From Thermodesulfovibrionia bacterium (GTDB lineage Bacteria > Nitrospirota > Thermodesulfovibrionia > UBA6902): a stretch of DNA of 64,000 nucleotides. A program made the position numbers and the translations under genes. Shown piece after piece: positions 12,812-56,572 of the stretch. Below the pieces are notes generated by a model. It searched no databases. It was given only the letters and a program-made list of their open reading frames with translations, and was not told the DNA's origin. Every line of letters starts with the position of its first letter. Positions within the stretch are counted from its first letter, which is position 1. The stretch is from the NCBI GenBank assembly GCA_947259735.1, contig CAMYNN010000009.1, positions 17,856-81,855 of the forward strand, written 5' to 3'.

Positions 12812-13495
12812 ATGAAAACGTACAGAAAACCAGCGGTTCTCCTGCTGACCATTCATCTCTTCATCTGTATCTCCTGCGCTGTTATTACCGCTCCCTACAA
12901 GGTTACAAAGGCTGTTCTGAAGGGGAGCATCTGGACCATCAGGGGAGCTTATGAACTGACTGCAGGTACAACAAAGCTTGTCTACAGTGTAGGCAAATTC
13001 ACCTTTCATGTTGTCCGGGCTCCTCTGGAGTGGCCCCTCATAAATGATGATATCGAAGCGATTGACGGTCTCCCCGTGAAGGAGGCTATACGTCAGGGTC
13101 GTGTGAAGAATTCTCCCTACACGGTAAAAGGGAAACGATACTATCCTATGTCTGTGATGGAGTCAAAGAAGTACAACGAGGTGGGTATTGCCTCCTGGTA
13201 CGGCCACGAGACTCTGCGGCAGAAGGGAGGCCATATGACCGCAAATGGTGAAAAGTTCAGTCCCTACGCCCTGACAGCAGCTCACAAGCACCTGCCTCTC
13301 CCTACGAACGTAAAAGTCACTAACCTCAGTAATAACCGGGCAATAGTAGTCAGGGTGAACGACCGAGGTCCCTTTCCGAGCAGAAACAATCCTAACTCGG
13401 GAAAGAGAATTATCGATCTCAGTATGAATGCAGCAAAGAAACTCGGTTTTTATCGCAATGGTACGGCCAGGGTCCGCGTGGAAGTTATCAGTTAA
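12812..13495 (+). CDS. rlpA: Septal ring lytic transglycosylase RlpA-family lipoprotein (double-psi beta-barrel)
   Basis: 227 aa. Lipoprotein signal (LFICISC). DPBB motif IASWYGHETLRQKGGHMTANGEKFSPYALTAAHKHLPLPTNVKVTNLSNNRAIVVRVNDRGPF. Confidence 0.85.
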   Translation: MKTYRKPAVLLLTIHLFICISCAVITAPYKVTKAVLKGSIWTIRGAYELTAGTTKLVYSVGKFTFHVVRAPLEWPLINDDIEAIDGLPVKEAIRQGRVKNSPYTVKGKRYYPMSVMESKKYNEVGIASWYGHETLRQKGGHMTANGEKFSPYALTAAHKHLPLPTNVKVTNLSNNRAIVVRVNDRGPFPSRNNPNSGKRIIDLSMNAAKKLGFYRNGTARVRVEVIS

Positions 13496-27398: not shown

Positions 27399-28304
27399 TT
27401 GTATAACCTAATTAAAGTGCTTGAATATTCTTTAAAAAAGTTCCGTTATCTCAACTACCTGCTCGCTGTTTTGATAGTTTTTGCATCCCTGCTCCTGGTG
27501 AGAAACGTTGTGAGCATTTCTTTTTCAAAAAACGGAGAACCGCAGGTCGCCTCAGAAGATACCCCTTTACCATATAAGAATAAAAAAGACATTATGCACT
27601 ATTCCGGAATACTGGAAAGAAATCCTTTCGGAGAGCCGATGAGCCTCAAACCTATCGCCGGTGAGAAAAAGGAGGCAACATTTCATGGATCATTGACTGA
27701 TCTGACCTTGGTCGGAACGGTAGTCGGTCCCCGATGGCTGAGTTATGCAATATTTGAAAACAAGGCAAATTCGTCCACCGGAGGCCAGGAAGTTTTTGCA
27801 TACAGGGAAAAAATCTACGATTACGGGATGTTAACAACGATCAGCAGCTCATCTGTTGAAATAGAGCAGGACGGTCGGCTTTACAAACTCACAATTCCAT
27901 TTGAAGAAGCCGGAGAAAAGTTGACAGGGGAACCGGACAGGCGATCTTCAACTCCTCAAAACTCATTTGCAAGAAAAGTAGGTGAAAGGGAGTATGTTCT
28001 TGACGGCAGAAGAGTCCAGAAATCACTCGAAAGCCCTGAACAGATATTGACAGACGCGCGACTGCTACCGAACTTTGTGGACGGAAAGCAGGAGGGCTTC
28101 AAAGTAAGCGAAGTAATTCCTGACGGAATTTACCACACCATGGGGATCAGAAACGGAGACATCCTGTTAAGAGTAAACGGCCTTGAAATATCAAATCCTG
28201 AAGTTGCCATGCAGGCAATGACTGCCCTGAAAGGAATGAACAGGGTCGAACTGGACATAGCGAGAGAAGGCAAGAACATGTCTATGAATTACCAGATACG
28301 GTAA
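27399..28304 (+). CDS. gspC: Type II secretion system protein GspC (N-terminal TM anchor, HR/PilP-like region, C-terminal PDZ)
   Basis: 301 aa. TM helix YLNYLLAVLIVFASLLLV. C-terminal PDZ (GIRNGDILLRVNGLEISNPEVAMQAMTALKGMNRVELDIAREGK). Immediately upstream of gspD. Confidence 0.75.
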   Translation: MYNLIKVLEYSLKKFRYLNYLLAVLIVFASLLLVRNVVSISFSKNGEPQVASEDTPLPYKNKKDIMHYSGILERNPFGEPMSLKPIAGEKKEATFHGSLTDLTLVGTVVGPRWLSYAIFENKANSSTGGQEVFAYREKIYDYGMLTTISSSSVEIEQDGRLYKLTIPFEEAGEKLTGEPDRRSSTPQNSFARKVGEREYVLDGRRVQKSLESPEQILTDARLLPNFVDGKQEGFKVSEVIPDGIYHTMGIRNGDILLRVNGLEISNPEVAMQAMTALKGMNRVELDIAREGKNMSMNYQIR

Positions 28305-28349: not shown

Positions 28350-30893
28350 ATGGATAATCCTTTTAATACTATTCAGAACCTGAAATCCTTTAAGGACCCA
28401 TTGATGAAGATAATGAAGAAGCTTTCAGTCCTGCTATGTTCGCTTGTGGTTGCAGCCTGGACCCTCTCTTTTCCTTCATTGACCGCTGCAGATACGTCCA
28501 GAGGAACTAATTCTTCGCAGCCGCAGATAGCCTTCAATTTTGTTGACGTGGAAATCCCCACAGTCATTAAATTCATCAGTGAAATTACGAAAAAAAACTT
28601 TCTTTTTGATAACAGGATAAAGGGGAAAATAACAATAATAGCCCCGACAAAACTCTCTCTTGATGAATCGTTCAACCTCTTCACATCGGTACTCAGCCTG
28701 AAGGGGTTCACCATAATTCCTTCAGGTCCGAACACGTATAAGATTATCCCCTCATCACTCGCAAAACAGACAGGGCGAATTTCTGACGACAAATTTGTTT
28801 CCGTTAACGAGGGATACATAACGAAACTGCTCCCCATCGATAACATTAAGGCCAGCGAGGCATTGCAGTTTCTCCGCCCTGTCATTTCGAGGGACGGACA
28901 CATATCTGCTTTTGGCCCCCGCAATATGCTGCTCGTTGTTGACTCCGGTATAAATATCGACAAAGTCATGTCAATTCTCAGCCTGATTGATAAGCCGTCC
29001 ATAGCAGAAGAAGAGTCACAGATCAATGTCTACTTCCTCGAGCATGCCGATGCGGTAGACATGTCAACGGTCCTGCAGGGGATAATAAAGGATCTTCAGA
29101 CATCATACAAATCCGCCAGGAGGGCTAAACAGACACCCGCTGAAAGTGCAGTTCCCATACTGAGCGTCACACCTGACAAGGCAACCAATGCCCTTGTAAT
29201 AGTGGCCCCCTTATCGGACTACGACAACATCCTCCGGGTAATCAGAACTCTCGACAAGAAGAGGAAGCAGGTCTTTGTTGAGGCAATGATCGTTGAAGCG
29301 CAAATGGACAAATTGAAAGATCTTGGAACAAAATGGAGGGTAATGGCAACCCACAATGATGAACCAATCGCCATAGGAGGCGTTGGAAATGTCAGTTCCG
29401 GAACAATCCTGGATATCATCACCGGTCTTTCCGGTTTTTCTGTCGGCGGCATGGGGAACTTCATTGATATCCCCGTTACATCTATCGGCGGAAGCGGGGC
29501 TTCTAGTGAGACATTGACAGCTCCGGGATTTGCTGCACTCTTCAGCCTGAGCGATTTCAAAGATGCAATAAACGTTTTGTCAACTCCGCAGATACTCACC
29601 TCCGATAATGAAGAAGCAGAAATACTTGTTGGTGAAAATGTCCCCTTCATATCCCAGAGAGAGCGGGACGTTGTTACGACTAACACTGTGCTGAATTCCA
29701 TCGTGAGGACCGATGTAGGGATCAAGCTGCGGATAACTCCTCAGATTACTGAAGGGGACTACGTCAAACTCGATTTATTCCAGGAAATTTCCGCGGTTAA
29801 GAATACCTCTGAGGAAATACTCACCACCGTCGGACCTACAACCACCAAAAGGTCAACAAAGACCTCTGTGGTGGTCAAGGATGGACGGACCGTCGTCATA
29901 GGAGGACTGATGCAGGAAAGAGAAGAGGAAAGTGTTATCAAGATACCCCTTCTGGGTGACATTCCTGTCCTTGAATGGCTCTTCAAGTTCAAGAGCGTTT
30001 CAAAAACCAAGACAAACCTCCTCGTATTTCTCTCTCCCCATATTGTCAAAGAACATCCCAGACAGGAAGAAACAACGGAAAATATGCACCGGGAATTTGC
30101 GGCAAATGAAAATTCATACAGCCGCGGGGAATTGATGGTCAAATTCAGAGACTATATTTCCGTAGAGAGAGCCCTGGAAATAATTACGATGATGGATGCA
30201 GCAGTCATAAAACGCTTTGCAAGCATAGATGTCTATCACATACGACTCAGGGGCGGCCAGGATGTGGACCATGCCATTGAAATGTTTTCATCTCATCCTG
30301 ACGTTCTGTACGCCGAACCGAACTACAAAGTCAGAATCCCTGAACCTCCTGAAGAGAGAAATATGGAATATCAAGTGCCTGAGCTGAATACGAACAATAC
30401 TGAACATTCTCAGCAAGAGAATAAAGTACGTCCCCTGCCCCGTGAAACGAAAGAGTCATCACCTGTAGAACCATTCGCATATGTCAACAGTTCAGTTAAA
30501 CCGTCTTTGCCAATAAGCAAAATGAAAAAAAAAACAAGTTCAGATCATGACGATTTCAACGCAGGCAGCAGCCCTCCCACGACAGACCTGTCTCAAAGCA
30601 TAGCCCCTGCAGCGTCTCCCGGGTATTCTCGGGACTTTGAGATACAGCAGATCAACAAGCCGGCAGTAAATAAGTATTATATCCAGGTCGGTGCCTGGAA
30701 AAACATTAAGTATGCCACAGACACCCTTTCAACACTGAGGACTCAATACCCTGATGTATATCTGGCCAAAGAAGGCACCTTTCACAAGATCCGGATCCCG
30801 GGCACCATGAGCAGAAAAAAAGATGTATCAATACTGAATGATCTGAAAAATAATTTTAATCTGAAGCCTATTCTCGTAAATCAATCGTTGTAA
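28350..30893 (+). CDS. gspD: Type II secretion system secretin GspD with extra C-terminal SPOR (peptidoglycan-binding) domain
   Basis: 847 aa. N0-N3 domains and secretin core (VVIGGLMQEREEESVIKIPLLGDIPVLEWLFKFKS...NLLVFLSPHIV). C-terminal ~80 aa resemble a SPOR domain (YYIQVGAWKNIKYATDTLSTLRTQYPDVYLAKEGTFHKIRIPG). An inserted ~70-aa segment ends in HPDVLYAEPNY. Confidence 0.85.
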   Translation: MDNPFNTIQNLKSFKDPLMKIMKKLSVLLCSLVVAAWTLSFPSLTAADTSRGTNSSQPQIAFNFVDVEIPTVIKFISEITKKNFLFDNRIKGKITIIAPTKLSLDESFNLFTSVLSLKGFTIIPSGPNTYKIIPSSLAKQTGRISDDKFVSVNEGYITKLLPIDNIKASEALQFLRPVISRDGHISAFGPRNMLLVVDSGINIDKVMSILSLIDKPSIAEEESQINVYFLEHADAVDMSTVLQGIIKDLQTSYKSARRAKQTPAESAVPILSVTPDKATNALVIVAPLSDYDNILRVIRTLDKKRKQVFVEAMIVEAQMDKLKDLGTKWRVMATHNDEPIAIGGVGNVSSGTILDIITGLSGFSVGGMGNFIDIPVTSIGGSGASSETLTAPGFAALFSLSDFKDAINVLSTPQILTSDNEEAEILVGENVPFISQRERDVVTTNTVLNSIVRTDVGIKLRITPQITEGDYVKLDLFQEISAVKNTSEEILTTVGPTTTKRSTKTSVVVKDGRTVVIGGLMQEREEESVIKIPLLGDIPVLEWLFKFKSVSKTKTNLLVFLSPHIVKEHPRQEETTENMHREFAANENSYSRGELMVKFRDYISVERALEIITMMDAAVIKRFASIDVYHIRLRGGQDVDHAIEMFSSHPDVLYAEPNYKVRIPEPPEERNMEYQVPELNTNNTEHSQQENKVRPLPRETKESSPVEPFAYVNSSVKPSLPISKMKKKTSSDHDDFNAGSSPPTTDLSQSIAPAASPGYSRDFEIQQINKPAVNKYYIQVGAWKNIKYATDTLSTLRTQYPDVYLAKEGTFHKIRIPGTMSRKKDVSILNDLKNNFNLKPILVNQSL

Positions 30894-30909: not shown

Positions 30910-32436
30910 ATGATGGACAGTATAGAAAATATCAAAGACGATGAGATAGAGTTCTCCCTTCTCGAAAAAATATCCCTCTCCTTTGCCAAGGGCAATGTAT
31001 TTTTGCCGCTGAGAAGAGAGGACAATGAATTGCTGGGAGCCGTGGCTGATACCCGGGGAATTTTTGCACTTCGGGATCTGGCGCGAAGCATGAACCTCAA
31101 GCCCCGTCCGCTTCAGGCAGGAGAGGCCCTCATAATAGAAACAATTAACCGCATTTACAGCCGGACAAGCAGGGTAGACGAAGCAATGGGGGTCATCCAC
31201 GGAGAAGACCTTTCCATGGTAGCTACGGAATTTGAATCACCGACCGATCTTCTTGAACTGACGGAAGAGGCCCCGATCATCCGTCTGCTGAATGCGCTGT
31301 TGATGGAAGCAGTAAAGGAAAAAGCAAGTGATATTCATATCGAACCCTATGAAAAAGGCATTGATGTCAGATTCCGGGTAGACGGGATTCTGAGCAAAGT
31401 CTTGAGTCCTCCAAAAATTATTCATGACGCCCTCATATCCAGGGTAAAGATACTTGCCGGTCTCGATATTGCGGAAAAAAGACTTCCCCAGGACGGAAGA
31501 ATACAGCTGCTTGTGGGCGGGAAAGACATCGATATCCGTGTGTCCATCATACCGACCGCACTGGGCGAAAGGGCCGTCCTGAGACTCCTTGACCGTCATT
31601 CAGGTATGCTGAGCCTTGAAATGCTCGGACTGACAGACACCCTTCTCATTTCATTAAAGAATGCCCTGTCCAGGCACAATGGAATCATACTGGTTACAGG
31701 ACCGACAGGCTCCGGTAAAACTACTTCATTGTATGCATCACTCCTGCGGCTCAACACGGAAGACAGGAATATCATCACTGTTGAAGACCCTGTTGAGTAT
31801 CAGTTGGCCGGCATAGGGCAGATGCAGGTCAATCCAAAAATCGGTCTGACATTTGCAGCGGGACTGAGATCGATACTGCGGCAGGATCCGGATATAATGA
31901 TGGTCGGTGAGATACGAGATCTGGAAACTGCGGAGATTGCAGTTCACGCTTCCCTGACAGGGCATCTGGTCCTGAGCACCCTGCATACAAACGATGCTCC
32001 CAGTGCTGCCACACGACTCATTGACATGGGTATAGAACCATTTCTTGTCTCCTCATCGCTGGCATGTGTACTGGCCCAGCGGCTTGTAAGGGTAATCTGC
32101 CCTCACTGCAAAGAATCCTATGTGCCGTCTAAACAGGAACTGAACTACCTCGAAATTGACCCTCCTCCTTCTGAACTGTACCGTGGGAAGGGATGCGAAA
32201 AGTGCCTGGACAAGGGATATCTCGGCAGGACAGGCATCTACGAACTGCTCGAAATCACTCCTGATGTAAGAACAATGATAGCGGAGAGAAAAGATGCTCA
32301 GGCAATCAAGGCAGCCGCAGTACGGTCCGCCGGATTTAATTCTCTCCAGAAAAATGCATTGGACAAGATATTAAAAGGTATTACAACCGTTGAGGAAGTC
32401 ATACGGGTAACACTAAAAGATGCAGAATCATTATAG
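30910..32436 (+). CDS. gspE: Type II secretion ATPase GspE
   Basis: 508 aa. N1 domain, Walker [24 protein letters not shown], Zn tetracysteine CPHC...CEKC. Confidence 0.92.
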   Translation: MMDSIENIKDDEIEFSLLEKISLSFAKGNVFLPLRREDNELLGAVADTRGIFALRDLARSMNLKPRPLQAGEALIIETINRIYSRTSRVDEAMGVIHGEDLSMVATEFESPTDLLELTEEAPIIRLLNALLMEAVKEKASDIHIEPYEKGIDVRFRVDGILSKVLSPPKIIHDALISRVKILAGLDIAEKRLPQDGRIQLLVGGKDIDIRVSIIPTALGERAVLRLLDRHSGMLSLEMLGLTDTLLISLKNALSRHNGIILVTGPTGSGKTTSLYASLLRLNTEDRNIITVEDPVEYQLAGIGQMQVNPKIGLTFAAGLRSILRQDPDIMMVGEIRDLETAEIAVHASLTGHLVLSTLHTNDAPSAATRLIDMGIEPFLVSSSLACVLAQRLVRVICPHCKESYVPSKQELNYLEIDPPPSELYRGKGCEKCLDKGYLGRTGIYELLEITPDVRTMIAERKDAQAIKAAAVRSAGFNSLQKNALDKILKGITTVEEVIRVTLKDAESL

Positions 32437-32598: not shown

Positions 32599-33774
32599 AT
32601 GCCTGTATTCAAATATCGAGGATATGATCAGCAGGGAGCGGCAACTGACGGAGTAATAGAAGCCGACGGACAACGGGATGCCGCCCTGAAAATAAAAACA
32701 AAGGGAATCTTCCCAAAAGAGATACGGGAGGCAAGCACCTCACCGAAGAAATCTCTTTTCAAACAGATATCGCCCCTGACACTTGCCAACATAACACGAA
32801 GACTTTCAACGCTCCTTTCGTCAGGAGTTCCGCTCATAGAAGCAATGGGAGCCCTCTCTAACGAGCAGAAGGGTGAATGGAAGAACATTTTAATCGACGT
32901 GAAAGACAGACTTGCCGGTGGCGCGACTTTTGACCGTGCGCTGAGTGCACATCCTGATGTCTTCCCTGATTTTTACTGCGGCATGATTTCCGCAGGCGAA
33001 AGCAGCGGCAAACTGACTGATGTGCTGGAAAAACTCGCCGATTATCTTGAAAAGGAAATCAATATTAAAAGCAAAGTCACAACAGCACTCACCTATCCCC
33101 TGTTCATGGCCTGTGTAAGCGTCGCCATTGTCCTTTTCCTGTTTACCTTTGTAATCCCGAAGATAACCAAGATATTCGAGGAAAGTGCTTCAGCCCTCCC
33201 CTTTGCGACCATCGTCCTCATCTGGATCAGCACGGCACTGAAAAAATTCTGGTGGCTTTTGATAGCGCTCACAGCAGGCATTGCTTTCACATTCAGAAAG
33301 ATAAAACAGAAGAGAAAAGATCTGATTGACGGCCTCCTCCTCAGGGAACCGACGGGCATCATGACAGGGCTTTACATGCTGCGCTTTTCCATGACAATGG
33401 GATTCCTTCTCTCAGGCGGACTTCCAATTCTCCGGGCCATGAAGCTGACTTCAAAGGCAACGGGAAATGTTGTACTTGAGCAGAGAATCATATCTGCCGA
33501 GAATCTGGTTTCACAGGGAGCAAAACTCTCGTCAAGTCTTGAGGGGTTCCCTCCCACACTGTTGCAGATTATTTCTACAGGGGAACAGACGGGAAAACTT
33601 CCTGAAGTGCTCTTGAAAACAGCCCAGTCCTATGAGTCCGATTTTGACAGAAAACTCCAACGGGGGATCAGCCTTCTGGAACCGGTCCTTATTTTAACCA
33701 TGGGACTGGTTGTCGGTTTTATCGTTGTGTCAGTACTGCTCCCCATTTTTGAGCTGAATGAAATGATGCGCTAA
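32599..33774 (+). CDS. gspF: Type II secretion inner-membrane platform protein GspF
   Basis: 391 aa. Duplicated GspF/PilC domain and 3 TM segments. Conserved GE..G motifs. Confidence 0.9.
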   Translation: MPVFKYRGYDQQGAATDGVIEADGQRDAALKIKTKGIFPKEIREASTSPKKSLFKQISPLTLANITRRLSTLLSSGVPLIEAMGALSNEQKGEWKNILIDVKDRLAGGATFDRALSAHPDVFPDFYCGMISAGESSGKLTDVLEKLADYLEKEINIKSKVTTALTYPLFMACVSVAIVLFLFTFVIPKITKIFEESASALPFATIVLIWISTALKKFWWLLIALTAGIAFTFRKIKQKRKDLIDGLLLREPTGIMTGLYMLRFSMTMGFLLSGGLPILRAMKLTSKATGNVVLEQRIISAENLVSQGAKLSSSLEGFPPTLLQIISTGEQTGKLPEVLLKTAQSYESDFDRKLQRGISLLEPVLILTMGLVVGFIVVSVLLPIFELNEMMR

Positions 33775-37338: not shown

Positions 37339-38172
37339 ATGTTCAATATCTTAAAGAAGGAGGAATTGTCAGAGCAGATAACGTTATTTGAGATCTCTGC
37401 AAAAGACATCGCGAATAAGGCAAAGCCGGGTAATTTTTTTATGCTCAGGACTCATGAGCAGGGAGAAAGGGTTCCTTTAACCATTGCTGATTTTGACAGG
37501 GACAGAGGGACCATAACAGCTGTGTTTCAGAAGGTCGGCAAGTCGACCAATCATCTGGGGTCCCTCAATGAAGGTGATTTTATACCCGATGTCACCGGTC
37601 CTCTCGGTAACCACTCCCACATAGATAATTTCGGCAGAGTTGTGTGCGTGGGAGGCGGCGTGGGGATCGCGCCTGTATACCCCATAGCAAAAGCGCTCAA
37701 AGAATCAGGCAATATCGTCACATCAATCATAGGTGCCCGTTCAAAATCAATTCTCTTTTGGGAAGAAAAGATGCGGAACGTATCTGACGAACTTATTATT
37801 ACCACCGATGACGGTTCCTACGGCACCAAGGCAACTGTAACCGCTCCCCTGGAAGATATTCTGAGCACCGAACAGGTCGACCTGGTCGTTGCCATCGGCC
37901 CTGCAGTCATGATGAAGTTCGTCTGCAAGACGACGGAAAAGTACAGAGTAAAAACGGTAGTCAGCCTCAATTCAATCATGATTGACGGGACGGGAATGTG
38001 CGGCGGCTGCAGGGTTGAAGTTGGAGGGGAGACAAAGTATACCTGTGTCGACGGCCCCGAATTTAATGGCCACGACGTGAACTTTGATCTGCTTATGAAC
38101 AGGCTGAAGGCGTATATTCCCCAGGAAAGTATAGCTTTGAACCGGGGAGGATCAACAGTGGAGGTCCAATAG
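37339..38172 (+). CDS. nfnA: NADH-dependent reduced ferredoxin:NADP+ oxidoreductase subunit A (NfnA / SudB; PyrK-like FAD + [2Fe-2S])
   Basis: 277 aa. FAD/NAD-binding fold (VCVGGGVGIAPVYPIAKAL). C-terminal Cys cluster (GTGMCGGCRVEVGGETKYTCVDGPEF). Followed by the gltD-like partner. Confidence 0.8.
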   Translation: MFNILKKEELSEQITLFEISAKDIANKAKPGNFFMLRTHEQGERVPLTIADFDRDRGTITAVFQKVGKSTNHLGSLNEGDFIPDVTGPLGNHSHIDNFGRVVCVGGGVGIAPVYPIAKALKESGNIVTSIIGARSKSILFWEEKMRNVSDELIITTDDGSYGTKATVTAPLEDILSTEQVDLVVAIGPAVMMKFVCKTTEKYRVKTVVSLNSIMIDGTGMCGGCRVEVGGETKYTCVDGPEFNGHDVNFDLLMNRLKAYIPQESIALNRGGSTVEVQ

Positions 38173-38174
38173 AT

Positions 38175-39605
38175 ATGGAATTAAAGACAGAGGAGAAAAG
38201 CACACATCATAGAGTGGAAATGAGGGAACAGGCACCTCTGGTACGGGCACGGAATTTCAAGGAGGTTCCTTTTGGATATACCCCTGATGAAGCAGTCGAG
38301 GAGGCATCAAGATGCAAGACATGCAAGAAAGGCGTCTGCAGGACAGGGTGCCCCGTTGAAGTAGATATTCCCGGATTTATAGAACTGATAAAAGAAAGAA
38401 AATTCCTCGATGCCTGCTACAGGGTAAAGGAGAAAAATGCCCTGCCGGCTGTCTGCGGAAGGGTATGCCCCCAGGAAAGACAGTGCGAATCACGCTGCCT
38501 GCTGGGCAAGACGGGAAAGCCCGTTGCGATTGGAAACCTGGAGAGATTTGTTGCTGATTATGAGGCAGAGAAGGGTAACATGAGAATTCCTGAAAGACCG
38601 GATCCCACAGGGAGAAAAGTCGCAGTCATTGGCTCCGGTCCGGGAGGCCTGACATGTGCAGTCGATCTTGCAATGGCCGGACATCAGGTCACCTTATATG
38701 AGGCATTTCATGAAGCGGGAGGGGTATTAGTTTACGGTATACCCGAGTTCAGGCTTCCCAAGGCAATTGTGAAAAGAGAGGTCGAGTATATAAAGAAGCT
38801 GGGTATCGAGCTTAAACTCAATGTGGTAATTGGAAAACTCCACACCATTGATGAATTACTGAATGGCAAGGGATATGATGCATGCTTTATTTGTACAGGT
38901 GCAGGACTGCCCATGTTTTTAGGAATACCGGGTGAAAACCTTAATGGTGTCTGCTCTGCAAATGAATATCTGACAAGGGCCAATCTTATGAAGGCCTATC
39001 TCTTTCCCGAATATGAAACACCCATAAAAGTAGGCACGAAAGTCGCTGTACTGGGTGGAGGCAATGTTGCCATGGATGCTGCACGGGTAGCATTAAGGCT
39101 TGGCGCGGAAAAGGTCTATCTTATTTACCGCCGCTCCGAGGACGAGATGCCTGCAAGAAAAGCGGAAGTACACCATGCACGCGAGGAAGGCATTGAGCTT
39201 TTACTCCTGACAAACCCGACAAGATACATTGATGACGGGAATGGGAATCTCTGCGGACTTGAATGCATCAGTATGAACCTCGGCGAACCGGATGAATCAG
39301 GCAGGAGAAGGCCCGTTCCGATCAAGGGCAGCGAGTTTCAAATCCCCGTAGATGTAGCAATCCCCGCATTAGGGGCCAAAGCAAATCCGCTTCTCACAAG
39401 AACAATGTCGGATTTAACCGTAAATAAAGGCGGCTATATTACCGCTGAAGACGGGACTGGCATGACATCGAAGAAGGGTGTATTCGCAGGTGGAGATATT
39501 GTCACAGGTGCTGCAACGGTTATCTCGGCTATGGGAGCAGGAAGGAGGACAGCGAATGCAATCAACGAGTATCTCAAATGGAATCACTGGGAGTTTAACG
39601 CATAG
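38175..39605 (+). CDS. nfnB: NfnB / SudA / GltD-like subunit (glutamate synthase small-chain family; 2x[4Fe-4S], FAD, NADPH)
   Basis: 476 aa. N-terminal Cys motifs (CKTCKKGVCRTGCPV, CGRVCPQERQCESRC). Two dinucleotide-binding motifs VAVIGSGPGGL and VAVLGGGNVAMD. Confidence 0.85.
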   Translation: MELKTEEKSTHHRVEMREQAPLVRARNFKEVPFGYTPDEAVEEASRCKTCKKGVCRTGCPVEVDIPGFIELIKERKFLDACYRVKEKNALPAVCGRVCPQERQCESRCLLGKTGKPVAIGNLERFVADYEAEKGNMRIPERPDPTGRKVAVIGSGPGGLTCAVDLAMAGHQVTLYEAFHEAGGVLVYGIPEFRLPKAIVKREVEYIKKLGIELKLNVVIGKLHTIDELLNGKGYDACFICTGAGLPMFLGIPGENLNGVCSANEYLTRANLMKAYLFPEYETPIKVGTKVAVLGGGNVAMDAARVALRLGAEKVYLIYRRSEDEMPARKAEVHHAREEGIELLLLTNPTRYIDDGNGNLCGLECISMNLGEPDESGRRRPVPIKGSEFQIPVDVAIPALGAKANPLLTRTMSDLTVNKGGYITAEDGTGMTSKKGVFAGGDIVTGAATVISAMGAGRRTANAINEYLKWNHWEFNA

Positions 39606-39611
39606 ATGTAT

Positions 39612-39638
39612 GTAAGGGCGGGGGCACCCCGCCCTTAC
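39612..39638 (+). other. Perfect GC-rich palindrome GTAAGGGCGGG-GGCAC-CCCGCCCTTAC between nfnB and the REC-nuoE-like gene (stem-loop; no T-tract)
   Basis: Read directly. 11-bp stem, 5-nt loop. Located 7 nt after the nfnB stop and 17 nt before the next start. Confidence 0.5.
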
Positions 39639-39654
39639 GAAGGGAGGGAAAACA

Positions 39655-40398
39655 ATGAGAGAAGATATAAACATTCTGATCGTAGACGATGAGCCTGTAG
39701 TTTTAAAGAGTGCCGCGAGGATCCTGAGTCCCGAAGGCTATGACGTAGAAGGAGTAATCAGCGGGAAAATGGCAGTACAAAATATAAAGCACAATAATTA
39801 CAGACTTGTCATCACAGACCTCAAGATGCCCGGAATAGACGGCATTACGCTCATACAATGGATCAGACAGTATCAGCCTGGTATAGGTATCGTGGTTATT
39901 ACCGGACACCTCTTCCCGGAAAACATCAAAGAGGAAGATAAACGCGGAATACTCAGCCATATCATGAAGCCCTTTACACCGGAAATACTGAAAGACGCAG
40001 TACATATGGCAGTAGAAATGACAATTGGAAATGATTCAGAGATTGCACCGGAACAATACTTCCAGCAGGCAAAGATCGAGGAACTGGACGGGATGATAAA
40101 TCGATACAAAAAAAATTCACGCCATGCAATAGGTGCGCTGCTGCAGGCCCAGGAAATATTAGGGTATCTTCCCCCAATAATACAGAAACATATCGCTCAT
40201 GGCCTGGATATGTATCCCTCTGAAATACGCCGTATTGTTTCCTTTCACTCCTGCTTCAGGACAGAACCGGAGGATATTCATGTATCGGGTTGCACAAATG
40301 GCATTGAAAAGGCATGGAACAGCGTGACCTGGATGACAGGGCATAATGCTTTGCATGCAGTCGGCGATTTTATTAAAGGGAGACAATTGGAGTCTTGA
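39655..40398 (+). CDS. Response-regulator receiver domain fused to an NuoE/HoxE-like (24-kDa subunit, N-terminal helical part) domain
   Basis: 247 aa. REC: ILIVDDEPVVL...RLVITDLKMPGIDG...IVVITGH. C-terminal region RHAIGALLQAQEILGYLPPIIQKHIAHGLDMYPSEIRRIVSFHSCF aligns with the NuoE N-terminal segment. The usual four-Cys 2Fe-2S motif is incomplete. A G7 homopolymer lies just downstream (40468-40475). Confidence 0.7.
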   Translation: MREDINILIVDDEPVVLKSAARILSPEGYDVEGVISGKMAVQNIKHNNYRLVITDLKMPGIDGITLIQWIRQYQPGIGIVVITGHLFPENIKEEDKRGILSHIMKPFTPEILKDAVHMAVEMTIGNDSEIAPEQYFQQAKIEELDGMINRYKKNSRHAIGALLQAQEILGYLPPIIQKHIAHGLDMYPSEIRRIVSFHSCFRTEPEDIHVSGCTNGIEKAWNSVTWMTGHNALHAVGDFIKGRQLES

Positions 40399-40501
40399 TG
40401 ATGGATATCTGCAGGGACGGCAACACACTCTTTCGGAACAAAACCTATGAATCCTTCAGCACCTCTATAGGGGGGTGGTGCTGCTGGAAAGGAGAATTCT
40501 T

Positions 40502-40885
40502 ATGGCCAGGCTAAGTATTGCAGACCTTCAGAAAGTGAGGGATAAAAACAAAGCATCATTTACTCTCAGAAAGGGCGATTACAAAGCGAAAATTACTGTC
40601 CATATGGGGACCTGCGGAATCGCGGCCGGTGCAAGGAATGTTATGACTGCCCTGATGAATGACATTGCCCTTTCCGGGAGAGAAGATATTGTAGTAAAAA
40701 CCTCAGGCTGCGGCGGGCTCTGCGCCCGTGAACCCATGACTGTTATTGAATTAGAGGATCAGACGCCTGTCATTTACGGCGACATGAATGAAGAGAAGGT
40801 CTCGGAAATATTCAGAGAACATATTATGGGCGGAACTCCTGTAGAAAAATATGCATTGGCTCTTGGAGGCACAGCTATATTCTGA
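40502..40885 (+). CDS. HndB-like small thioredoxin-fold [2Fe-2S] ferredoxin subunit (NuoE C-terminal-half-like)
   Basis: Start at ATG 40502 with perfect RBS aaggag. KITVHMGTCGIAAGA ... KTSGCGGLCAREPMT aligns with the Trx-like half of NuoE / Desulfovibrio HndB. Confidence 0.65.
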   Translation: MARLSIADLQKVRDKNKASFTLRKGDYKAKITVHMGTCGIAAGARNVMTALMNDIALSGREDIVVKTSGCGGLCAREPMTVIELEDQTPVIYGDMNEEKVSEIFREHIMGGTPVEKYALALGGTAIF

Positions 40886-40945
40886 CAGCCACTAACTACC
40901 TGTTGAACTTTGGACTTACAAATTATAAATATAAAGGAGGAATAC

Positions 40946-42823
40946 ATGGAAACTGCGGCTCGGACACATGCAATGCTTTGCGGAGGGACAGGCTGTATGG
41001 CAAGCGGCACGAACAAGGTCAAAGCCGCTCTCGAGGAGGAGTTTAAGAAGAAGGGAATTGACGATGAAGCAAAAGTGCACCTCTCAGGATGCAACGGGTT
41101 CTGCGCAAAGGGCCCTGTTATGGCTGTCTATCCCGATGAGACATTTTATCAGGATATAACGCCTGAAGATGTCCCCGGTCTTGTTGAGGAACATTTCCTG
41201 AAAGGGAGGCCCTATCAAAAATTGGCGTTCAAAGGGCATGACAAGAAAATTGCCATCCCCTCAATACATGATATTCCTTTCTTTAAACACCAGGTTCTGG
41301 TGGTGCTGAAAAACAAAGGGCTTATTGACCCTGAGAAGATCGAAGACTATATAATGATGGACGGCTATAAGGCGCTCGCAAGGGCACTCACGCAGATGAA
41401 GCCCGAAGAGATAGTAACGGTGGTTACCGACTCCGGACTAAGGGGAAGGGGCGGCGCAGGTTTCCCCACTGGCAAAAAATGGGAGCTCGGACGAAAAGTC
41501 GAATCGGAAGAGAAATATGTCATATGCAACGGTGATGAGGGTGACCCGGGCGCATTCATGGACAGATCGGTAATGGAATCAGACCCCCACGCAGTAATCG
41601 AAGGGATGATTCTCTGCGGCGTGGCGACTGAATCACATAAAGGCTACATCTATGTAAGGGCCGAATATCCCCTGGCAGTGAAACGACTTCAAATCGCCAT
41701 TGACCAGTGTTACGAGACAGGACTGCTCGGCAGTGACATATTCGGATCAGGTTTTGCTTTTGACCTTGAGATATACCAGGGCGCCGGCGCATTTGTTTGC
41801 GGTGAAGCTACGGCCCTGATGCGTTCTATTGAAGGCAAACGCGGGATGCCGAGGCCCAAACTGTTTCGTTCTGCAGTCAAGGGACTGTGGGACAATCCGA
41901 CTATACTAAACAATGTGGAGACCCTGGCGAATATTCCTCAAATCGTCTTAAACGGCGCTGGCTGGTACAGAAGCCTCGGCACCGATGAAAGCGCCGGGAC
42001 AAAGGTCTTTGCGCTTACAGGTGATATAAATAATGTGGGATTGGTTGAAGTCCCCATGGATACAACGCTCAGGAAGATTATCTTCGATATCGGCGGAGGG
42101 ATAGCAAAGAAGGGGAGAAAATTCAAGGCCGTACAGCTGGGAGGGCCTTCGGGAGGCTGCATCACCGAGGAGTTCCTGGATATCCCTGTTACCTATGAGG
42201 CCATCAAGAAGAGCGGCGCAATCGTAGGTTCCGGAGGTATGGTTGTAATGGATGACAGTACCTGCATGGTGAACACTGCAAAGTTCTTCCTTGACTTTAC
42301 TGCTGATGAATCCTGTGGTAAATGTGTCCCCTGCAGAATCGGAACAAAATTAATGTATGATCTGCTCGGCGACATCTGCGAAGGGAGGGGAAAAGCAGGG
42401 GATATAGAGATACTCGAAGACCTCTCGCAGGACATCATTGACTCATCACTCTGCGGCCTGGGCCAGTCAGCACCTACCCCGGTACTCTCAACGTTAAAAC
42501 ATTTCAGAAACGAATATGAAATGCACATAAATCACAAATGGTGTCCTACCGGTGTTTGTGGTGACCTCAGCACATTCTATATAGATGAAAAACTGTGCAA
42601 GGGATGCGGTGCCTGCGTGAGGGCATGTCCGGCAAATGCTGTAACCGGTGAAAAGAAAAAACCCCATGCGATAAATCAGGAAAATTGCGTACATTGCAGA
42701 ACATGCTGGGATTCATGCAAGTTCGGTTCTATAAAGATACTTCCTGCCGCGGCCCGTCATGCGGGAGAGGCTGAAATAAAGCATCTGTCGGGCATGCTGG
42801 AGGAAAGGGGAAAAATAATCTGA
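40946..42823 (+). CDS. NuoF/HndC/FdsB-like NAD(P)H-binding flavoprotein subunit (N-terminal Trx-like 2Fe-2S, FMN/NADH 51-kDa core, C-terminal 2x[4Fe-4S])
   Basis: Start at ATG 40946 (RBS aaggagg). LCGGTGCMASG...SGCNGFCAKGP. GLRGRGGAGFPTGKKW (FMN site). SLCGLGQ. C-terminal CKGCGACVRACP and CVHCRTCWDSC. Confidence 0.9.
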   Translation: METAARTHAMLCGGTGCMASGTNKVKAALEEEFKKKGIDDEAKVHLSGCNGFCAKGPVMAVYPDETFYQDITPEDVPGLVEEHFLKGRPYQKLAFKGHDKKIAIPSIHDIPFFKHQVLVVLKNKGLIDPEKIEDYIMMDGYKALARALTQMKPEEIVTVVTDSGLRGRGGAGFPTGKKWELGRKVESEEKYVICNGDEGDPGAFMDRSVMESDPHAVIEGMILCGVATESHKGYIYVRAEYPLAVKRLQIAIDQCYETGLLGSDIFGSGFAFDLEIYQGAGAFVCGEATALMRSIEGKRGMPRPKLFRSAVKGLWDNPTILNNVETLANIPQIVLNGAGWYRSLGTDESAGTKVFALTGDINNVGLVEVPMDTTLRKIIFDIGGGIAKKGRKFKAVQLGGPSGGCITEEFLDIPVTYEAIKKSGAIVGSGGMVVMDDSTCMVNTAKFFLDFTADESCGKCVPCRIGTKLMYDLLGDICEGRGKAGDIEILEDLSQDIIDSSLCGLGQSAPTPVLSTLKHFRNEYEMHINHKWCPTGVCGDLSTFYIDEKLCKGCGACVRACPANAVTGEKKKPHAINQENCVHCRTCWDSCKFGSIKILPAAARHAGEAEIKHLSGMLEERGKII

Positions 42824-42943
42824 TGCTGCCTAAGTATAAAACGGGAGATTTCAGTATCCATGATCAACTGTCCCATGTGAAGCGGTTAACCGCGGAACGA
42901 CGGAACGGTTACACAGTGCAACGTTTAAAAGCGGAGGTGTTCC

Positions 42944-45427
42944 ATGATAAAACTTACAATTAATGGCAAAAAGGTCAGGACTGAAAAAGGCAGTACCATC
43001 CTTGAAACCGCAATGAGCAACGGCATAAAAATACCCAATCTCTGCTATGATGGCAGAGTGGAGCCCCACGGGGGCTGCAGGTTGTGTATTGTGGAGATCG
43101 AGGGGTGGAGGAAACCCGAGGCATCATGTGCGACATTTGCAGCTGAAGGGATGACCGTGTGGACAAATACCCCTAAGGTGACAAAGATACGCCAGTCCGT
43201 ACTTGAGTTCATGTTAGTCCATCACCCCCTTGACTGTCCAGTTTGCGACAAAGCTGGTGAATGTGATGTCCAGGATCTAGCCCATCAGTATGGCAGCCCA
43301 CGATCACGTTTTATGAGGGAGAGGAAACACGCACTGCCTGATACCAAAGGCCCCCTCGTAGAATTAAATGCAAGCAGGTGTATCCTCTGCGGCAAATGCG
43401 TCCGTATCTGTGAAGAACATCAGGGCCGGGGAGCACTGGGGTTTATCGGGAGAGGCTTTCCCACTGTTGTTCAGCCTGCATTTGGTGAAGTTCTTGAATG
43501 TGATTACTGCGGACAATGCATTGATGCATGTCCTACAGGTGCCCTCATGAACAAATCCCATAAATTCGAGGCGCGGTCATGGTCCCTCGATGAGAAGGAT
43601 ACCATATGCCCCTTCTGCAGCTGCGGCTGTACTCTCACCCTTGGAATGATGGAAGGAAAGATACTGAGATCGAGAGGAAGGAAAGGCAGGGGAGTAAACG
43701 AGGGCAATCTATGTGGCAGAGGACGGTTTGGCGTTGATTATGTCTACAGCGAGAACCGTCTCAAGTCACCTGTAATTAATAAAGGTGGAGAGCTTGTCCC
43801 GGTCTCATGGGATGAGGCCCTTAATTATATCAGCGACAGACTCAAAAATATAATCAATGCCCACGGCCCGTCATCCATAGGCGCAATAGGGTCGCCCAGA
43901 TGTACAAATGAGGAGAATTATATTTTTCAGAAATTCATGAAGGAGACAATAGGTTCGAACAACATAGATTCCTCCGCTTCCTTCGGCTACGGCATTGCAG
44001 AGAGGGCCTGGAACAAGGCCTTCGGTCTCAAAGGTCACAGGATAGACCTGAAATCTCCTCTGGGTAAGGATGTAATCCTCGTCATAGAGTCTGACCTCAG
44101 CGTAACTCATCCTGTTTTCGGACTCAACATCCTTCAGGCACAGAAGGAGGGATCAAAGCTCATCGTTGCTGACAGCAGGGAGACAAAGTTGACAAGGCAC
44201 AGCACAGAATCTCCAAAATTAAAACAGGGGACAGGGGTTGCGTTCCTGAACGGAATAATGAAGGTCCTGCTGGACAGGGGTCTTTATGAGACGGAACATG
44301 TCTCAAATGTAAAAGGTTTTTCAGCACTTGAGGAAACGTTAAAAGAGTATTCCCAGGATCGAGTCTACGCGATTACAGGGGTTCCCGGGGATGAGCTTAT
44401 TGCCATTGCAGAGACTTTGGTGAATGCCAAAACCAGAATGCTCACTCTTTCCATCGGGATTTCTGAAAATACAAAGGGACTGGATACTATGTTGGCCGCA
44501 GCAAATTTAATTCACCTTCTGGGTGAGAGTCCCGACGCCCTTCAGGTGCCTGCAGAATACTCCAATACCTTTGGCCTTTATCAAATGGGTGTGCGCCCCG
44601 ATGCCGGTCCGGCTTATCAACCCTTCGGGGGTACCGGTAAAGATGTGAGGGAAATGCTCTATGAGCCTTACTCTCTCAAGGCGCTTTATATAATGGGAGC
44701 AGACCCTGTTGTCACCTTCCCCAACAACTCAGATATTATCACCACATTGAAATCACTCTACCTGCTCATCGTTCAGGATATCGCTTTGACGGAGACAGCA
44801 AAATTTGCTCACGTTATACTCCCTGCATCCAGCTGGTCGGAAAAAGACGGCACCTATACCAATACCGAAGGAATTACCCAGAAGATCCACAAGGTCATTG
44901 ATCCTGCAGGCCAGTCGCTTCCTGATTGGCAGATCCTTAAAAAACTAGCAGCGACTATGGGAAAGGACATCGATATAAAAGAGAGAAAAGACATAGTACA
45001 GGAGATAAACTCATTGCTTGATGAACAAAGCGAATTGCCGCCTCTCACCCGCGCATTTAACCCGGTTCATTATACCCCGGGCGAAAAAACGGATAAAGAG
45101 TATCCATTGAACATGGTCGCAAGGGATGTACTGCAGCACGCCGGCAGCATGTCAACGAGGTCAAAATCGCTGAACCTGGTCTCATCTGAGGCGCTCCTTG
45201 AGATAAACTGGAAAGATGCGAAAAGGTACGGCATTTCAGATAACGGTCATGTAAAAGTGACTTCGAGACGGGGTACGGTATTTCTCAAGGCAGCCGTCTC
45301 CGATGACGTTCCTGATGGAAGTGTCTATGTACCGACACACTTTCCGCACAGCGGAGTAAGTACCCTTATGAGTCCATCGGGAAATGGGGGAATTTCTACT
45401 GATGCGGTCAGGATTGAAACAGCATAA
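42944..45427 (+). CDS. fdhA: NAD-dependent formate dehydrogenase catalytic subunit FdhA/FdsA-like (2Fe-2S + 4Fe-4S + Mo/W-bisPGD), cysteine-type
   Basis: 827 aa. N-terminal 2Fe-2S (CYDGRVEPHGGCRLC). His/Cys cluster (HHPLDCPVCDKAGEC). 4Fe-4S CILCGKC / CDYCGQCIDACP. MopB start ICPFCSCGC. Mo-ligand position reads SPRC (Cys, not TGA). Clustered with NuoE/NuoF-like subunits. Confidence 0.88.
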   Translation: MIKLTINGKKVRTEKGSTILETAMSNGIKIPNLCYDGRVEPHGGCRLCIVEIEGWRKPEASCATFAAEGMTVWTNTPKVTKIRQSVLEFMLVHHPLDCPVCDKAGECDVQDLAHQYGSPRSRFMRERKHALPDTKGPLVELNASRCILCGKCVRICEEHQGRGALGFIGRGFPTVVQPAFGEVLECDYCGQCIDACPTGALMNKSHKFEARSWSLDEKDTICPFCSCGCTLTLGMMEGKILRSRGRKGRGVNEGNLCGRGRFGVDYVYSENRLKSPVINKGGELVPVSWDEALNYISDRLKNIINAHGPSSIGAIGSPRCTNEENYIFQKFMKETIGSNNIDSSASFGYGIAERAWNKAFGLKGHRIDLKSPLGKDVILVIESDLSVTHPVFGLNILQAQKEGSKLIVADSRETKLTRHSTESPKLKQGTGVAFLNGIMKVLLDRGLYETEHVSNVKGFSALEETLKEYSQDRVYAITGVPGDELIAIAETLVNAKTRMLTLSIGISENTKGLDTMLAAANLIHLLGESPDALQVPAEYSNTFGLYQMGVRPDAGPAYQPFGGTGKDVREMLYEPYSLKALYIMGADPVVTFPNNSDIITTLKSLYLLIVQDIALTETAKFAHVILPASSWSEKDGTYTNTEGITQKIHKVIDPAGQSLPDWQILKKLAATMGKDIDIKERKDIVQEINSLLDEQSELPPLTRAFNPVHYTPGEKTDKEYPLNMVARDVLQHAGSMSTRSKSLNLVSSEALLEINWKDAKRYGISDNGHVKVTSRRGTVFLKAAVSDDVPDGSVYVPTHFPHSGVSTLMSPSGNGGISTDAVRIETA

Positions 45428-47705: not shown

Positions 47706-48356
47706 TCATTCGTCAATATCAGGCAGACCCGGAGTTCGTTGCTGCTCCTGGTCTGAGGAGCGCCTGACCCTGGTCGGTCTTCTGCGGGGAGGGGTTGCTC
47801 TCCTTCGTCGAGGCTTGGGTCTCTCCCTCGCTACAGCCTTGCGTTGTGTTGCTGCGCGCGCCTTCGCTCTGGTCGGCGGTTTAATCCCTTTATCGTCCCT
47901 CAACTTTACTTCTATATCATCGCCATCTCTGGAAAGCACAACCTTGTTTTCAAGTATTTCTGAAATCTTGTATCCGGAAAGGGAATCATTCAGTTTATAC
48001 ACTTTTGTCGTCTTCGTTTCAGGGTCCTCAAGAATAGCCGTTTTCATGTCATTAAGAATGATTGTTCCGAACAGCTTCGGCGGATTTTTCAGCGGAGCTT
48101 TTTCAGTTTTTTTCTTTTCCTTTACCGATGCTGATCTTGATGGCCTGAAAAGGTCCAGTTTCGATATATTATCAAAAGTGCCGGCACTGACAACTTTATC
48201 TTTCCTGCTTACAACATTCTCAGAATTTTGTACTTCATTAACATTTGCTTCCTTCGGGAGATCCGCGGAAGAGGACAGGACACTGTACAGTTTGATACCC
48301 AATACGCAAATTATTGTTATAAGAATAAGATTTACTAAGAAATAATTACGTATCAC
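47706..48356 (-). CDS. GspC/PilP-like type II secretion protein (TM anchor + HR-like domain, no PDZ; Arg/Pro-rich C-terminal tail), possibly GspN-equivalent
   Basis: 216 aa. Last gene of the gsp operon. N-terminal TM (LVNLILITIICVLGI). PilP/HR-like segment LFGTIILNDMKTAILEDPETKTTKVYKLNDSLSGYKISEILENKVVLSRDGDDIEVKL. Tail RAKARAATQRKAVARERPKPRRRRATPPRRRPTRVRR. Confidence 0.55.
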   Translation of the reverse strand: MIRNYFLVNLILITIICVLGIKLYSVLSSSADLPKEANVNEVQNSENVVSRKDKVVSAGTFDNISKLDLFRPSRSASVKEKKKTEKAPLKNPPKLFGTIILNDMKTAILEDPETKTTKVYKLNDSLSGYKISEILENKVVLSRDGDDIEVKLRDDKGIKPPTRAKARAATQRKAVARERPKPRRRRATPPRRRPTRVRRSSDQEQQRTPGLPDIDE

Positions 48357-51396: not shown

Positions 51397-51418
51397 ACTA
51401 CCCTGTGAATTGCACCGC

Positions 51419-53018: not shown

Positions 53019-53023
53019 TTCCC

Positions 53024-53476: not shown

Positions 53477-53616
53477 GAAAACCTCCCTTTAACATCTCAA
53501 ATCATTTAACATCTATCTATTAATTGGCGCTTTTGAATCGGATTTCCGACACCGGATCTCTCAAGTACTGTGCGACTCCAATATGGCAGATCTTTGTGCC
53601 TGTTTCAATGTGCCAT

Positions 53617-56558: not shown

Positions 56559-56572
56559 GGCTCAGGGTGAGT

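Follow-up and report, generated by a model that had tools for sequence, protein, structure and literature searches.

This work concerns a gene in a 64-kb window, i.e., the whole stretch of 64,000 nucleotides (nt) analysed here from contig CAMYNN010000009.1, which belongs to a metagenome-assembled genome (MAG) of a Thermodesulfovibrionia-type Nitrospirota bacterium. The gene, gspD, stands in a gspCDEF operon and encodes the secretin of a type II secretion system (T2SS), to the pore domain of which a tail is appended that consists of a domain homologous to subtilase prodomains, a low-complexity linker and a terminal SPOR domain. The genes of the operon and the parts of the secretin, with residues (aa) counted along the open reading frame (ORF), are as follows.

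27399–28304 (+): gspC, which opens the operon and whose product bears a PDZ domain at its C-terminus (Pfam T2SSC 31.1 bits, PDZ 28.3 bits)
28350–30893 (+): gspD, T2SS secretin, ORF of 847 aa (TIGR02517, 462.8 bits against a cut-off of 351.35)
28533–28745 (+): N0 domain of GspD, aa 62–132 (PF21305, 82.2 bits)
29028–29270 (+): best Secretin_N repeat, aa 227–307 (PF03958, 74.7 bits), one of two stretches, the other repeat lying upstream
29565–30050 (+): secretin beta-barrel and gate domain, aa 406–567 (PF00263, 160.6 bits, E = 3.5e-47)
30051–30086 (+): plausible short remnant of the S-domain at the alpha11 position, aa 568–579, a conserved helical segment that runs on to about aa 585
30087–30323 (+): subtilase-prodomain-like domain (Fervidolysin_NPro-like), aa 580–658, which ends ...HPDVLYAEPNYKVR
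30333–30659 (+): low-complexity linker of about 110 aa, aa 662–770, rich in Pro, Glu, Asp, Gln and Asn
30669–30878 (+): SPOR domain at the extreme C-terminus, aa 774–843 (PF05036, 27.8 bits against a cut-off of 21)
30910–32436 (+): gspE, the ATPase of this first set of T2SS genes (TIGR02533, 680 bits against a cut-off of 630)
32599–33774 (+): gspF, the inner-membrane platform of the first set (T2SSF 204 bits; TIGR02120 372.9 bits, under the cut-off of 424)

All Pfam domains listed for GspD exceed the curated gathering thresholds, while the NCBIfam models of PilQ, MshL and SctC all score under their cut-offs with the 847-aa protein. The protein aligns to the solved GspD 15-mers (5wq7, 5wln, 5zdh, 6hcg and 5wq8), and its N0 domain, N-domains and secretin core are canonical; the locus thus encodes a true GspD of a T2SS. 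The ORF itself had been reported in an earlier reading of the window made from the letters alone (hereafter, the sequence-only reading) and was recovered exactly as described there. The probable start of the gene is the ATG at 28404 (M19), which yields a protein of 829 aa, the first Met of the ORF likely lying 18 codons too early: inspection of start codons and ribosome-binding sites revealed AAGGA 8–12 nt upstream of this ATG, and from M19 the protein opens with a typical signal peptide (MKIMKKLSVLL...LTA/AD) without a lipobox. Only this signal peptide and some 15 residues precede N0, and there is no peptidoglycan-binding module in that part of the protein. Within the operon the gaps are 45 nt between gspC and gspD, 16 nt between gspD and gspE and 162 nt between gspE and gspF; the best NCBIfam match of gspC was GspC_delta, at 131.7 bits under the cut-off of 150.

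The first part of the tail was recognized by the Pfam family PF22148 (Fervidolysin_NPro-like), which matched aa 580–658 with 54.3 bits (cut-off 21, E = 1.9e-14). In the AlphaFold model the core of the corresponding region (aa 570–668) has a predicted local distance difference test score (pLDDT) above 90 and shows the same general sandwich fold as the SPOR region, and the top Foldseek matches of this region were the prosegment of subtilisin BPN', pro-subtilisin E, the prodomains of PC1/3 and furin, and fervidolysin. A profile of the module family aligned end to end with fervidolysin (1r6v, E = 0.0016), placing the terminal YAEPNY of the module on YVEPSY of fervidolysin and on YVEED of subtilisin; HPDVLYAEPNY forms the last strand of the domain. 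It was exactly this stretch in which a resemblance to subtilisin propeptides had been suspected, as a speculation, in the sequence-only reading. The resemblance turned out to be true homology to the prodomains of S8 subtilases, borne out by both the PF22148 score and the prodomain fold, although the family is PF22148 and not Inhibitor_I9, as had been supposed, and the segment is not inserted into the secretin, being appended after the secretin domain. No S8 catalytic domain was revealed in the 847-aa protein by the Pfam scan, no S8 gene was found within the 64-kb window, and in secretin loci from other genomes an S8 gene stood near the secretin in one of 53 cases (locus L039). The module is therefore regarded as a homologous domain and not as the propeptide of a protease.

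In solved secretins only the rim formed by the beta-lip and the amphipathic helical loop resides in the outer membrane, the remainder being periplasmic; the S-domain, in which helix alpha11 rests against the adjacent subunit and helix alpha12 binds the pilotin, follows the barrel, and its pilotin-binding feature varies among accepted GspDs (PMC6532946). The alignment of the protein under study to solved GspDs (5wq7, 5wq8, 6hcg, 6i1x, 6i1y and others) passes the last barrel strand and ends at about aa 585, where AlphaFold predicts a helix (aa 574–586) with low confidence. The respective segment, ITExKHxEFVxxEKFY, is plausibly the equivalent of alpha11; its T, F, E and Y residues show a conservation of 90% or more. 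The pilotin-binding helix alpha12 is absent after the alpha11 region, the PF22148 domain being found in that place, and no pilotin gene is recognisable in the operon. In other words, the pilotin-binding end of the S-domain is replaced in this secretin by the prodomain-homologous domain. Considering the position of the S-domain and the periplasmic topology of secretins, the tail is expected to be periplasmic and to be situated on the outer wall of the barrel.

The linker that follows the module gave no Pfam match above cut-off (aa 662–770). Across the 66 homologues that possess such a linker (see below), Pro accounts for 10.8% of its residues versus 4.7% in everything that precedes the prodomain-like domain, which served for comparison; the linkers are likewise enriched in Glu, Asp, Gln and Asn and poor in hydrophobic residues. 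Judging by this composition and by its variable length, the linker is presumed to be a disordered tether.

The SPOR domain at the very end of the protein was matched over positions 3–75 of the 76 positions of the PF05036 model (E = 3.2e-6), the motif YYIQVGAW being its strand beta1. AlphaFold modelled the region aa 765–847 with a pLDDT of 87.9 as beta-alpha-beta-beta-alpha-beta, and the first three Foldseek hits in the PDB were all SPOR domains with template modelling (TM) scores of 0.67–0.78: that of Pseudomonas aeruginosa RlpA in complex with a denuded glycan (6i09, TM 0.73/0.78), that of Bacillus subtilis CwlC (1x60) and that of apo RlpA (6i05). Direct search of the tail sequence against the PDB returned no match, only the profile and fold searches being productive; a word-based homology search with the tail alone was uninformative, its only hits being four unrelated proteins with SPOR, and even the identical protein escaped it. 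Among 37 diverse SPOR sequences of the family, IQVGAW keeps its Q, G and W without exception, and the R and I of KVRIPG hardly vary. When the family profile was aligned to the SPOR domains of FtsN (1uta) and CwlC, the invariant Gln fell on the Gln of FtsN VQCGSF, and F-x-K fell on FtsN W-N-R. These FtsN residues are reportedly important for septal localisation and peptidoglycan binding, as mutagenesis of FtsN and DamX is said to have demonstrated. The terminal SPOR domain thus retains the key beta1 Gln and the aromatic/basic pair of the glycan-binding face of FtsN type. Consequently, the C-terminal SPOR domain proposed in the sequence-only reading is supported by a score above the gathering threshold, by its three nearest folds and by its presence in orthologues, more than half of which carry it, and the tail is far from absent in them, since the module is found in all. 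The accompanying remark that SPOR does not normally occur on secretins has to be qualified: a precedent exists in the N-terminal SPOR domain of Legionella LspD.

A RlpA-like protein of 227 aa is encoded in the same window at 12812–13495 (+). RlpA proteins frequently carry a C-terminal SPOR domain; this one has a DPBB lytic-transglycosylase domain nearly at its C-terminus (aa 123–223) and lacks SPOR, so that in this window SPOR sits on the secretin and not on the RlpA-like protein.

Distribution of the tail was analyzed with the 120 best matches of a full-length GspD search, to which domains were assigned by local phmmer. All 120 proteins originate from Nitrospirota/Thermodesulfovibrionia-type metagenome bins, and the prodomain-like module is present in every one of them, at 38–59% identity and with its F, E and P positions invariant. 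SPOR occupies the extreme C-terminus of 66 of these proteins, followed by 0–10 residues and separated from the module by a linker of 35–254 aa (median about 135); the other 54 end 0–161 residues past the module, mostly within 5–25, and no SPOR remnant was detected in the SPOR-less loci examined. The SPOR state coincides with that of the nearest neighbour in 100 of the 120 proteins, compared with a mean of 60 and a maximum of 85 in shuffled data, i.e., SPOR presence tracks the secretin tree, yet is not strictly monophyletic. Additionally, a scan of species-representative genomes produced 182 confirmed matches, the best 80 of which were taken as loci (designated by L and a number); in 54 of these 80 loci the module terminates a secretin, and all 54 belong to Nitrospirota-type MAGs. 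Some members of the family have already been labelled "SPOR domain-containing protein" or "GspD/.../FtsN" by the NCBI and JGI pipelines.

Several deviating forms were encountered in these surveys. A second class of Nitrospirota secretins, 705–766 aa long, aligns to the GspD of the window only from about residue 240 on and ends in the prodomain-like module, never with SPOR (L019, L021, L022, L024, L029, L030, L032, L035–L037, L039, L041, L044, L048, L050, L051, L056, L065 and L067). The metagenomic secretins P0125 and P0126 possess two tandem modules after the barrel, each scoring 73–130 bits against the family profile.

Is the tail a passive addition, namely a subtilase fragment and a SPOR domain that were fused to the secretin by recombination and merely tolerated, with any SPOR binding being incidental? 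Such an origin would agree with the lack of SPOR, and of any remnants of it, in 54 of the close homologues, with the highly variable length of the linker, and with the fact that Aeromonas hydrophila ExeD tolerates changes at the C-terminal end of its S-domain (PMC6532946). We nevertheless consider it quite improbable, for the module is kept throughout the homologue set with its invariant positions and is kept also in the divergent class of shorter Nitrospirota secretins, the Q, G and W of SPOR do not vary over the diverse sequences compared, SPOR always takes the extreme C-terminus, and its distribution is structured along the tree well beyond the shuffle maximum. Retention of the module, invariance of the SPOR motif and the tree-structured distribution together point to purifying selection; the tail domains are conserved and are not chance matches.

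As the sequence originates from a MAG, the fusion might also be thought to reflect an artefact of assembly or gene calling, in which two or three neighbouring genes were merged. Two cases could be cited in its favour. In the MAG of a Thermodesulfovibrio sp. (L070, 9001–9234) the module forms a separate 87-aa ORF between gspD and gspE, which may be due to a frameshift in the bin or be a split form that exists in nature (a true split, if real, would inform on the function of the module), and in protein P0365 a subtilase ORF reads through into the GspG pseudopilin. On the other hand, an identical 847-aa protein has been called in two independent MAG assemblies, on a 166-kb contig of GCA_947258725.1 and on a contig of GCA_945786855.1, the same unbroken architecture recurs in dozens of MAGs of different studies as well as in the closed MAG chromosomes CP070788.1 and CP070632.1, and gspE begins right behind the gspD stop codon, 16 nt past it. 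An artefact is accordingly regarded as extremely improbable.

The module also occurs outside secretins. An exhaustive profile search revealed 2919 representative clusters at E ≤ 1e-3; of the top 150 clusters, 93 are proteins shorter than 200 aa, and among the large proteins the module is located near the N-terminus in 37, at the C-terminus in 11 and internally in 8. The large non-secretin proteins are S8 subtilases according to Pfam, and in the loci examined the small stand-alone ORFs mostly lie just upstream of an S8 gene (L054, L057, L078, L080, L081 and L082). Occurring either in cis or as an ORF upstream of S8, the module has as its ancestral context that of a subtilase prodomain in cis or in trans. 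Subtilases with the NPro-S8-fn3 architecture are encoded by Thermodesulfovibrionales as well.

Among 120 homologues of P0136, 23 are S8 subtilases that carry PF22148 a second time, at their very C-terminus; these NPro-S8-fn3-NPro proteins comprise P0136, P0153, P0159, P0160 and 19 more P0136 homologues, and the profile derived from secretins scores their C-terminal copy above the N-terminal prodomain.

T2SS genes were met near S8 or module genes in L039, L063, L082 and P0365, an association that is not conserved. In L039 a subtilase lipoprotein (1012–3582) is encoded directly upstream of gspC-gspD; its C-terminus consists of a stretch rich in Gly, the motif CFIATAAYGS and a hydrophobic helix, and the same motif is present in P0365. 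A C-terminus of the CFIATAAYGS type may be a sorting signal of a T2SS-linked protease. L063 and L082, which are bins of non-Nitrospirota, have a T2SS operon with a module gene following within about 4 kb; the module gene of L082 adjoins an S8 protease, and that of L063 is cut by the contig end. The secretin was also considered as a prodomain in trans for a nearby prodomain-less subtilase; this was not supported, the sole neighbouring S8 protease (L039) having a prodomain of its own.

These data bear on one more explanation, according to which the module docks, chaperones or inhibits an S8 subtilase at the pore, the latter being either a cargo of the T2SS or a periplasmic processing enzyme. Each subunit of the secretin would seize the protease in the classical prodomain–protease manner. 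The module is, after all, a true homologue of subtilase prodomains that elsewhere is an S8 prodomain in cis or lies just upstream of S8; its YAEPNY is aligned with the very strand (YVEPSY/YVEED) that leads into the protease active site, and the SPOR-less secretins end 5–10 residues past this strand, near the end of a processed prodomain. The presence of NPro-S8-fn3 subtilases in the same lineage, the S8 or module genes beside T2SS genes in the four cases above and the preference of the secretin-derived profile for the C-terminal copy of the two-copy subtilases are also in line with docking. Still, there is no conserved genomic link, the single nearby S8 gene among the 53 loci encodes a protease that already has its own prodomain, and the window has no S8 gene at all. 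Moreover, it is within the periplasmic vestibule that GspC and the GspD N-domains recognise the cargo of the T2SS. With the S-domain located outside the barrel, an external dock would be awkward for secretion. We therefore hold the docking of a subtilase to be unlikely, albeit deserving some weight.

The genomic context of the secretins was inspected in the 54 secretin loci, many of which are cut by contig ends. The gspC gene is directly upstream in 46 of them, gspE follows the secretin in 50, and gspF is present in 39; a frequent shared order is lpxC, tldD/pmbA, a PNP_UDP_1 phosphorylase gene and then gspC. About 20 loci contain eight further genes directly after gspCDEF, which encode GspG, H, I, J, K and L and two more families; by their position the last two correspond to gspM and a second C-like gene, no sequence match to the M or C' of the window having been found for them. 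Secretins with SPOR occur in full operons from gspC to gspM (L018, L045 and L053), which shows that SPOR-bearing secretins work within an ordinary complete T2SS.

The ligands of SPOR domains are glycan strands devoid of stem peptides, and such strands are most abundant at septa and poles (PMC5285504 and references therein). Taking into account this property and the architecture described, we consider it probable that the tail ties the GspD pore to the cell wall and that the module takes the role of the S-domain, the peptidoglycan anchor being the more secure part of this proposal and the role of the module the less secure one. That this secretin binds peptidoglycan, that it localises to septa and what its module does are all inferred. 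If the pore is assembled of 15 subunits, a ring of prodomain-like modules would surround the outer wall of the channel, and up to 15 SPOR domains would hang from tethers of about 110 residues, which should be enough to reach the peptidoglycan. Binding of SPOR to peptidoglycan would then anchor the pore to the cell wall; SPOR may also bring secretin monomers to division sites, so that the machine could be built through a wall under remodelling. The prodomain-like module, in its turn, would serve in the stead of the S-domain as a module of protein–protein interaction or assembly, which may staple neighbouring subunits or bind an assembly partner.

A number of points weigh against this proposal. 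The score of the SPOR model is modest (27.8 bits), and the E-values of the profile matches to PDB entries are marginal (0.002–0.014). As SPOR is missing in 54 of the 120 close homologues and has left no remnant in the SPOR-less loci examined, it is dispensable for secretins of this type, and with only 100 of 120 nearest neighbours agreeing in SPOR state, it has been gained or lost repeatedly. For LspD, too, the manner of its association with peptidoglycan was left open by the authors who obtained the tomograms of the Legionella system (bioRxiv 10.1101/525063). Finally, no gspG-M genes adjoin gspCDEF in the window and no cognate copies of them occur anywhere in its 64 kb, so that the activity of this particular system is not assured.

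A bolder version of the anchoring scheme can be envisaged, in which the pores of Thermodesulfovibrionia would pilot themselves and be addressed to the wall: the prodomain would replace the system of pilotin and S-domain, and SPOR would direct assembly to denuded septal peptidoglycan. The module would act there as a built-in assembly chaperone or, alternatively, as a receptor that parks inhibited S8 cargo outside the channel. Both the self-piloting scheme and the functions of the module within it appear rather doubtful to us. If true, they would imply that T2SSs are installed at division sites and inherited at the new poles, that there is a new route of secretin biogenesis, and that the subtilase prodomain fold has acquired a new use outside proteases.

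Apart from the gspCDEF operon, the window contains other genes related to secretion or to type IV pilus-like machines, which were located with Pfam and NCBIfam.

10180–10482 (−): PilZ protein of 100 aa (PilZ, 34.5 bits against a cut-off of 22.5)
10785–12620 (−): third ATPase of the GspE/PilB family (T2SSE 426 bits; MshEN-type N-domain 70.7 bits)
47706–58720 (−): second complete T2SS, gspD'-E'-F'-G-H-I-J-K-L-M-C'

The second complete T2SS, which the sequence-only reading had placed at 47.7–60.5 kb, is indeed present, within somewhat different limits; its gspD' encodes a protein of 714 aa without the tail domains. Its G–L proteins share 24–50% identity with those of the first-set type in relatives (GspG about 47%, H–L 24–32%), while C–F of the first set are 51–75% identical to their orthologues in relatives. 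On these identities, the second T2SS is a divergent, distant paralogue. The notion that it represents the split-off gspG-M genes of the first system was rejected, given the low identity of its G–L and the presence of its own D, E and F. The suggestion that gspCDEF lacks pseudopilins and may borrow them from the second set is correct in its first half as far as the neighbourhood of the operon goes; borrowing is not supported, as many relatives possess cognate gspG-M genes immediately downstream of this operon and the second set is distantly paralogous.

The third ATPase and the PilZ protein paired with it in the sequence-only reading were both confirmed by Pfam. The designation of this ATPase as MshE-like was not supported, however: the best NCBIfam matches are of TfpB/PilB type, under their cut-offs, and NF053729, the model of the cyclic di-GMP (c-di-GMP) motif, matched neither the third ATPase (at E ≤ 1e-5) nor GspE of the first set. 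A 24-residue regular expression for this motif, even in a loose form, matched none of the three ATPases and was uninformative, as it missed also GspE of the second set. The only ATPase that passed NF053729 was GspE of the second set (54834–56558, −; 54.2 bits against a cut-off of 38, aa 14–68). The candidate for gating by c-di-GMP is therefore the second T2SS and not the system for which gating had been proposed. The gap between the PilZ ORF and the gene of the third ATPase holds a perfect tandem repeat of the 7-bp unit GGCAATA in 11.4 copies (10621–10700), also readable as a 21-bp unit extending to 10714, which may represent a spacer or promoter region prone to slippage and phase variation.

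The neighbouring ORF at 8899–10158 (+) encodes a 419-aa protein that belongs to no Pfam family at E ≤ 1e-3 and contains an internally duplicated segment, ISRETPTVSHILKKHPDF / ISRDNPTVSHLLHAHSEF. On the 3' side of gspCDEF follow genes of a Cache-HAMP histidine kinase and a LuxR-type regulator and then redox genes. An ORF at 39655–40398 (+) encodes a response-regulator receiver fused to a thioredoxin-like 2Fe-2S ferredoxin (NuoE-like), and the cluster around it (37339–45427) comprises NuoF-like, Fe-S and molybdopterin-oxidoreductase genes and is formate dehydrogenase-like.

The domains of the tail, taken separately, and the idea of a wall-anchored secretin are known already; what is new with respect to the literature searched, in which no paper describing this secretin was found, is the secretin–module–tether–SPOR architecture and the co-option of a protease prodomain. 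T2SS biology has yet to explain how secretins attach to or cross the peptidoglycan and by what route those lacking a pilotin or GspA/B arrive at the outer membrane (PMC10329019; PMC9239104). With regard to these questions the lineage offers natural experiments: as a whole it has swapped the pilotin-binding end of the S-domain for a folded protease-prodomain module, and about half of the family adds a tethered SPOR domain, close relatives differing in that tail alone. Pairs with and without SPOR should be useful for studying the placement of pilotin-less secretins. The module also demonstrates that proteins other than proteases can make use of the subtilase prodomain fold. The practical reach of these findings is limited by the uncultured state of the hosts; the domains are small, though, and suited to in vitro tests or to grafting on a model secretin.

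The known proteins to which the module can be compared are the prodomains of fervidolysin (1r6v), subtilisins BPN' and E, PC1/3 and furin, and the I9 inhibitors. In contrast to them, the module has no protease attached, it is positioned C-terminally on a channel of the outer membrane, and there is no sign of its being removed by cleavage or of its inhibiting anything. With the canonical secretins of Klebsiella and Vibrio type (PulD/PulS, GspD-beta/AspS and EpsD/EpsS) the GspD under study shares domains N0 to N3, the secretin core and a C-terminal appendage outside the barrel with an expected role in assembly. The appendages themselves differ, however: only the alpha11 region can be aligned, and alpha12 is replaced by a folded prodomain-type domain of about 80 aa.

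As for secretins that carry peptidoglycan-binding modules of their own, PilQ of P. aeruginosa and Myxococcus xanthus provides a functional model for the SPOR domain described here, as its AMIN domains were shown to bind peptidoglycan and to bring the machine to the poles and to places where the cell is going to divide (PMC5285504). These domains are AMIN and not SPOR, they are N-terminal, the machine is a pilus and not a T2SS, and PilQ has neither an S-domain nor a prodomain-like module. The closest parallel is LspD of Legionella pneumophila, likewise a T2SS secretin of the GspD family with its own SPOR domain and the only T2SS secretin described with one (PMC9239104; PMC6617341; bioRxiv 10.1101/525063). 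It has the order SPOR-N0-N1-N2-N3-secretin and belongs to a system for which neither a pilotin nor GspA/B is known, and a comparable role at the wall has been proposed for its N-terminal SPOR (PMC6617341; PMC9239104). LspD comes from a gammaproteobacterium and lacks the subtilase-prodomain-like module, whereas the secretin of the Nitrospirota possesses it. Furthermore, SPOR of LspD precedes N0 at the base of the vestibule, while in the GspD of the window it forms the extreme C-terminus and would hang, on its tether of some 110 residues, from the barrel's outer wall close to the outer membrane. The tail would thus be, by analogy, a C-terminal functional counterpart of the N-terminal SPOR of LspD and of the AMIN domains of PilQ, and the location of SPOR at the end opposite to that in LspD suggests that anchoring of the pore to the wall evolved more than once and in different geometries.

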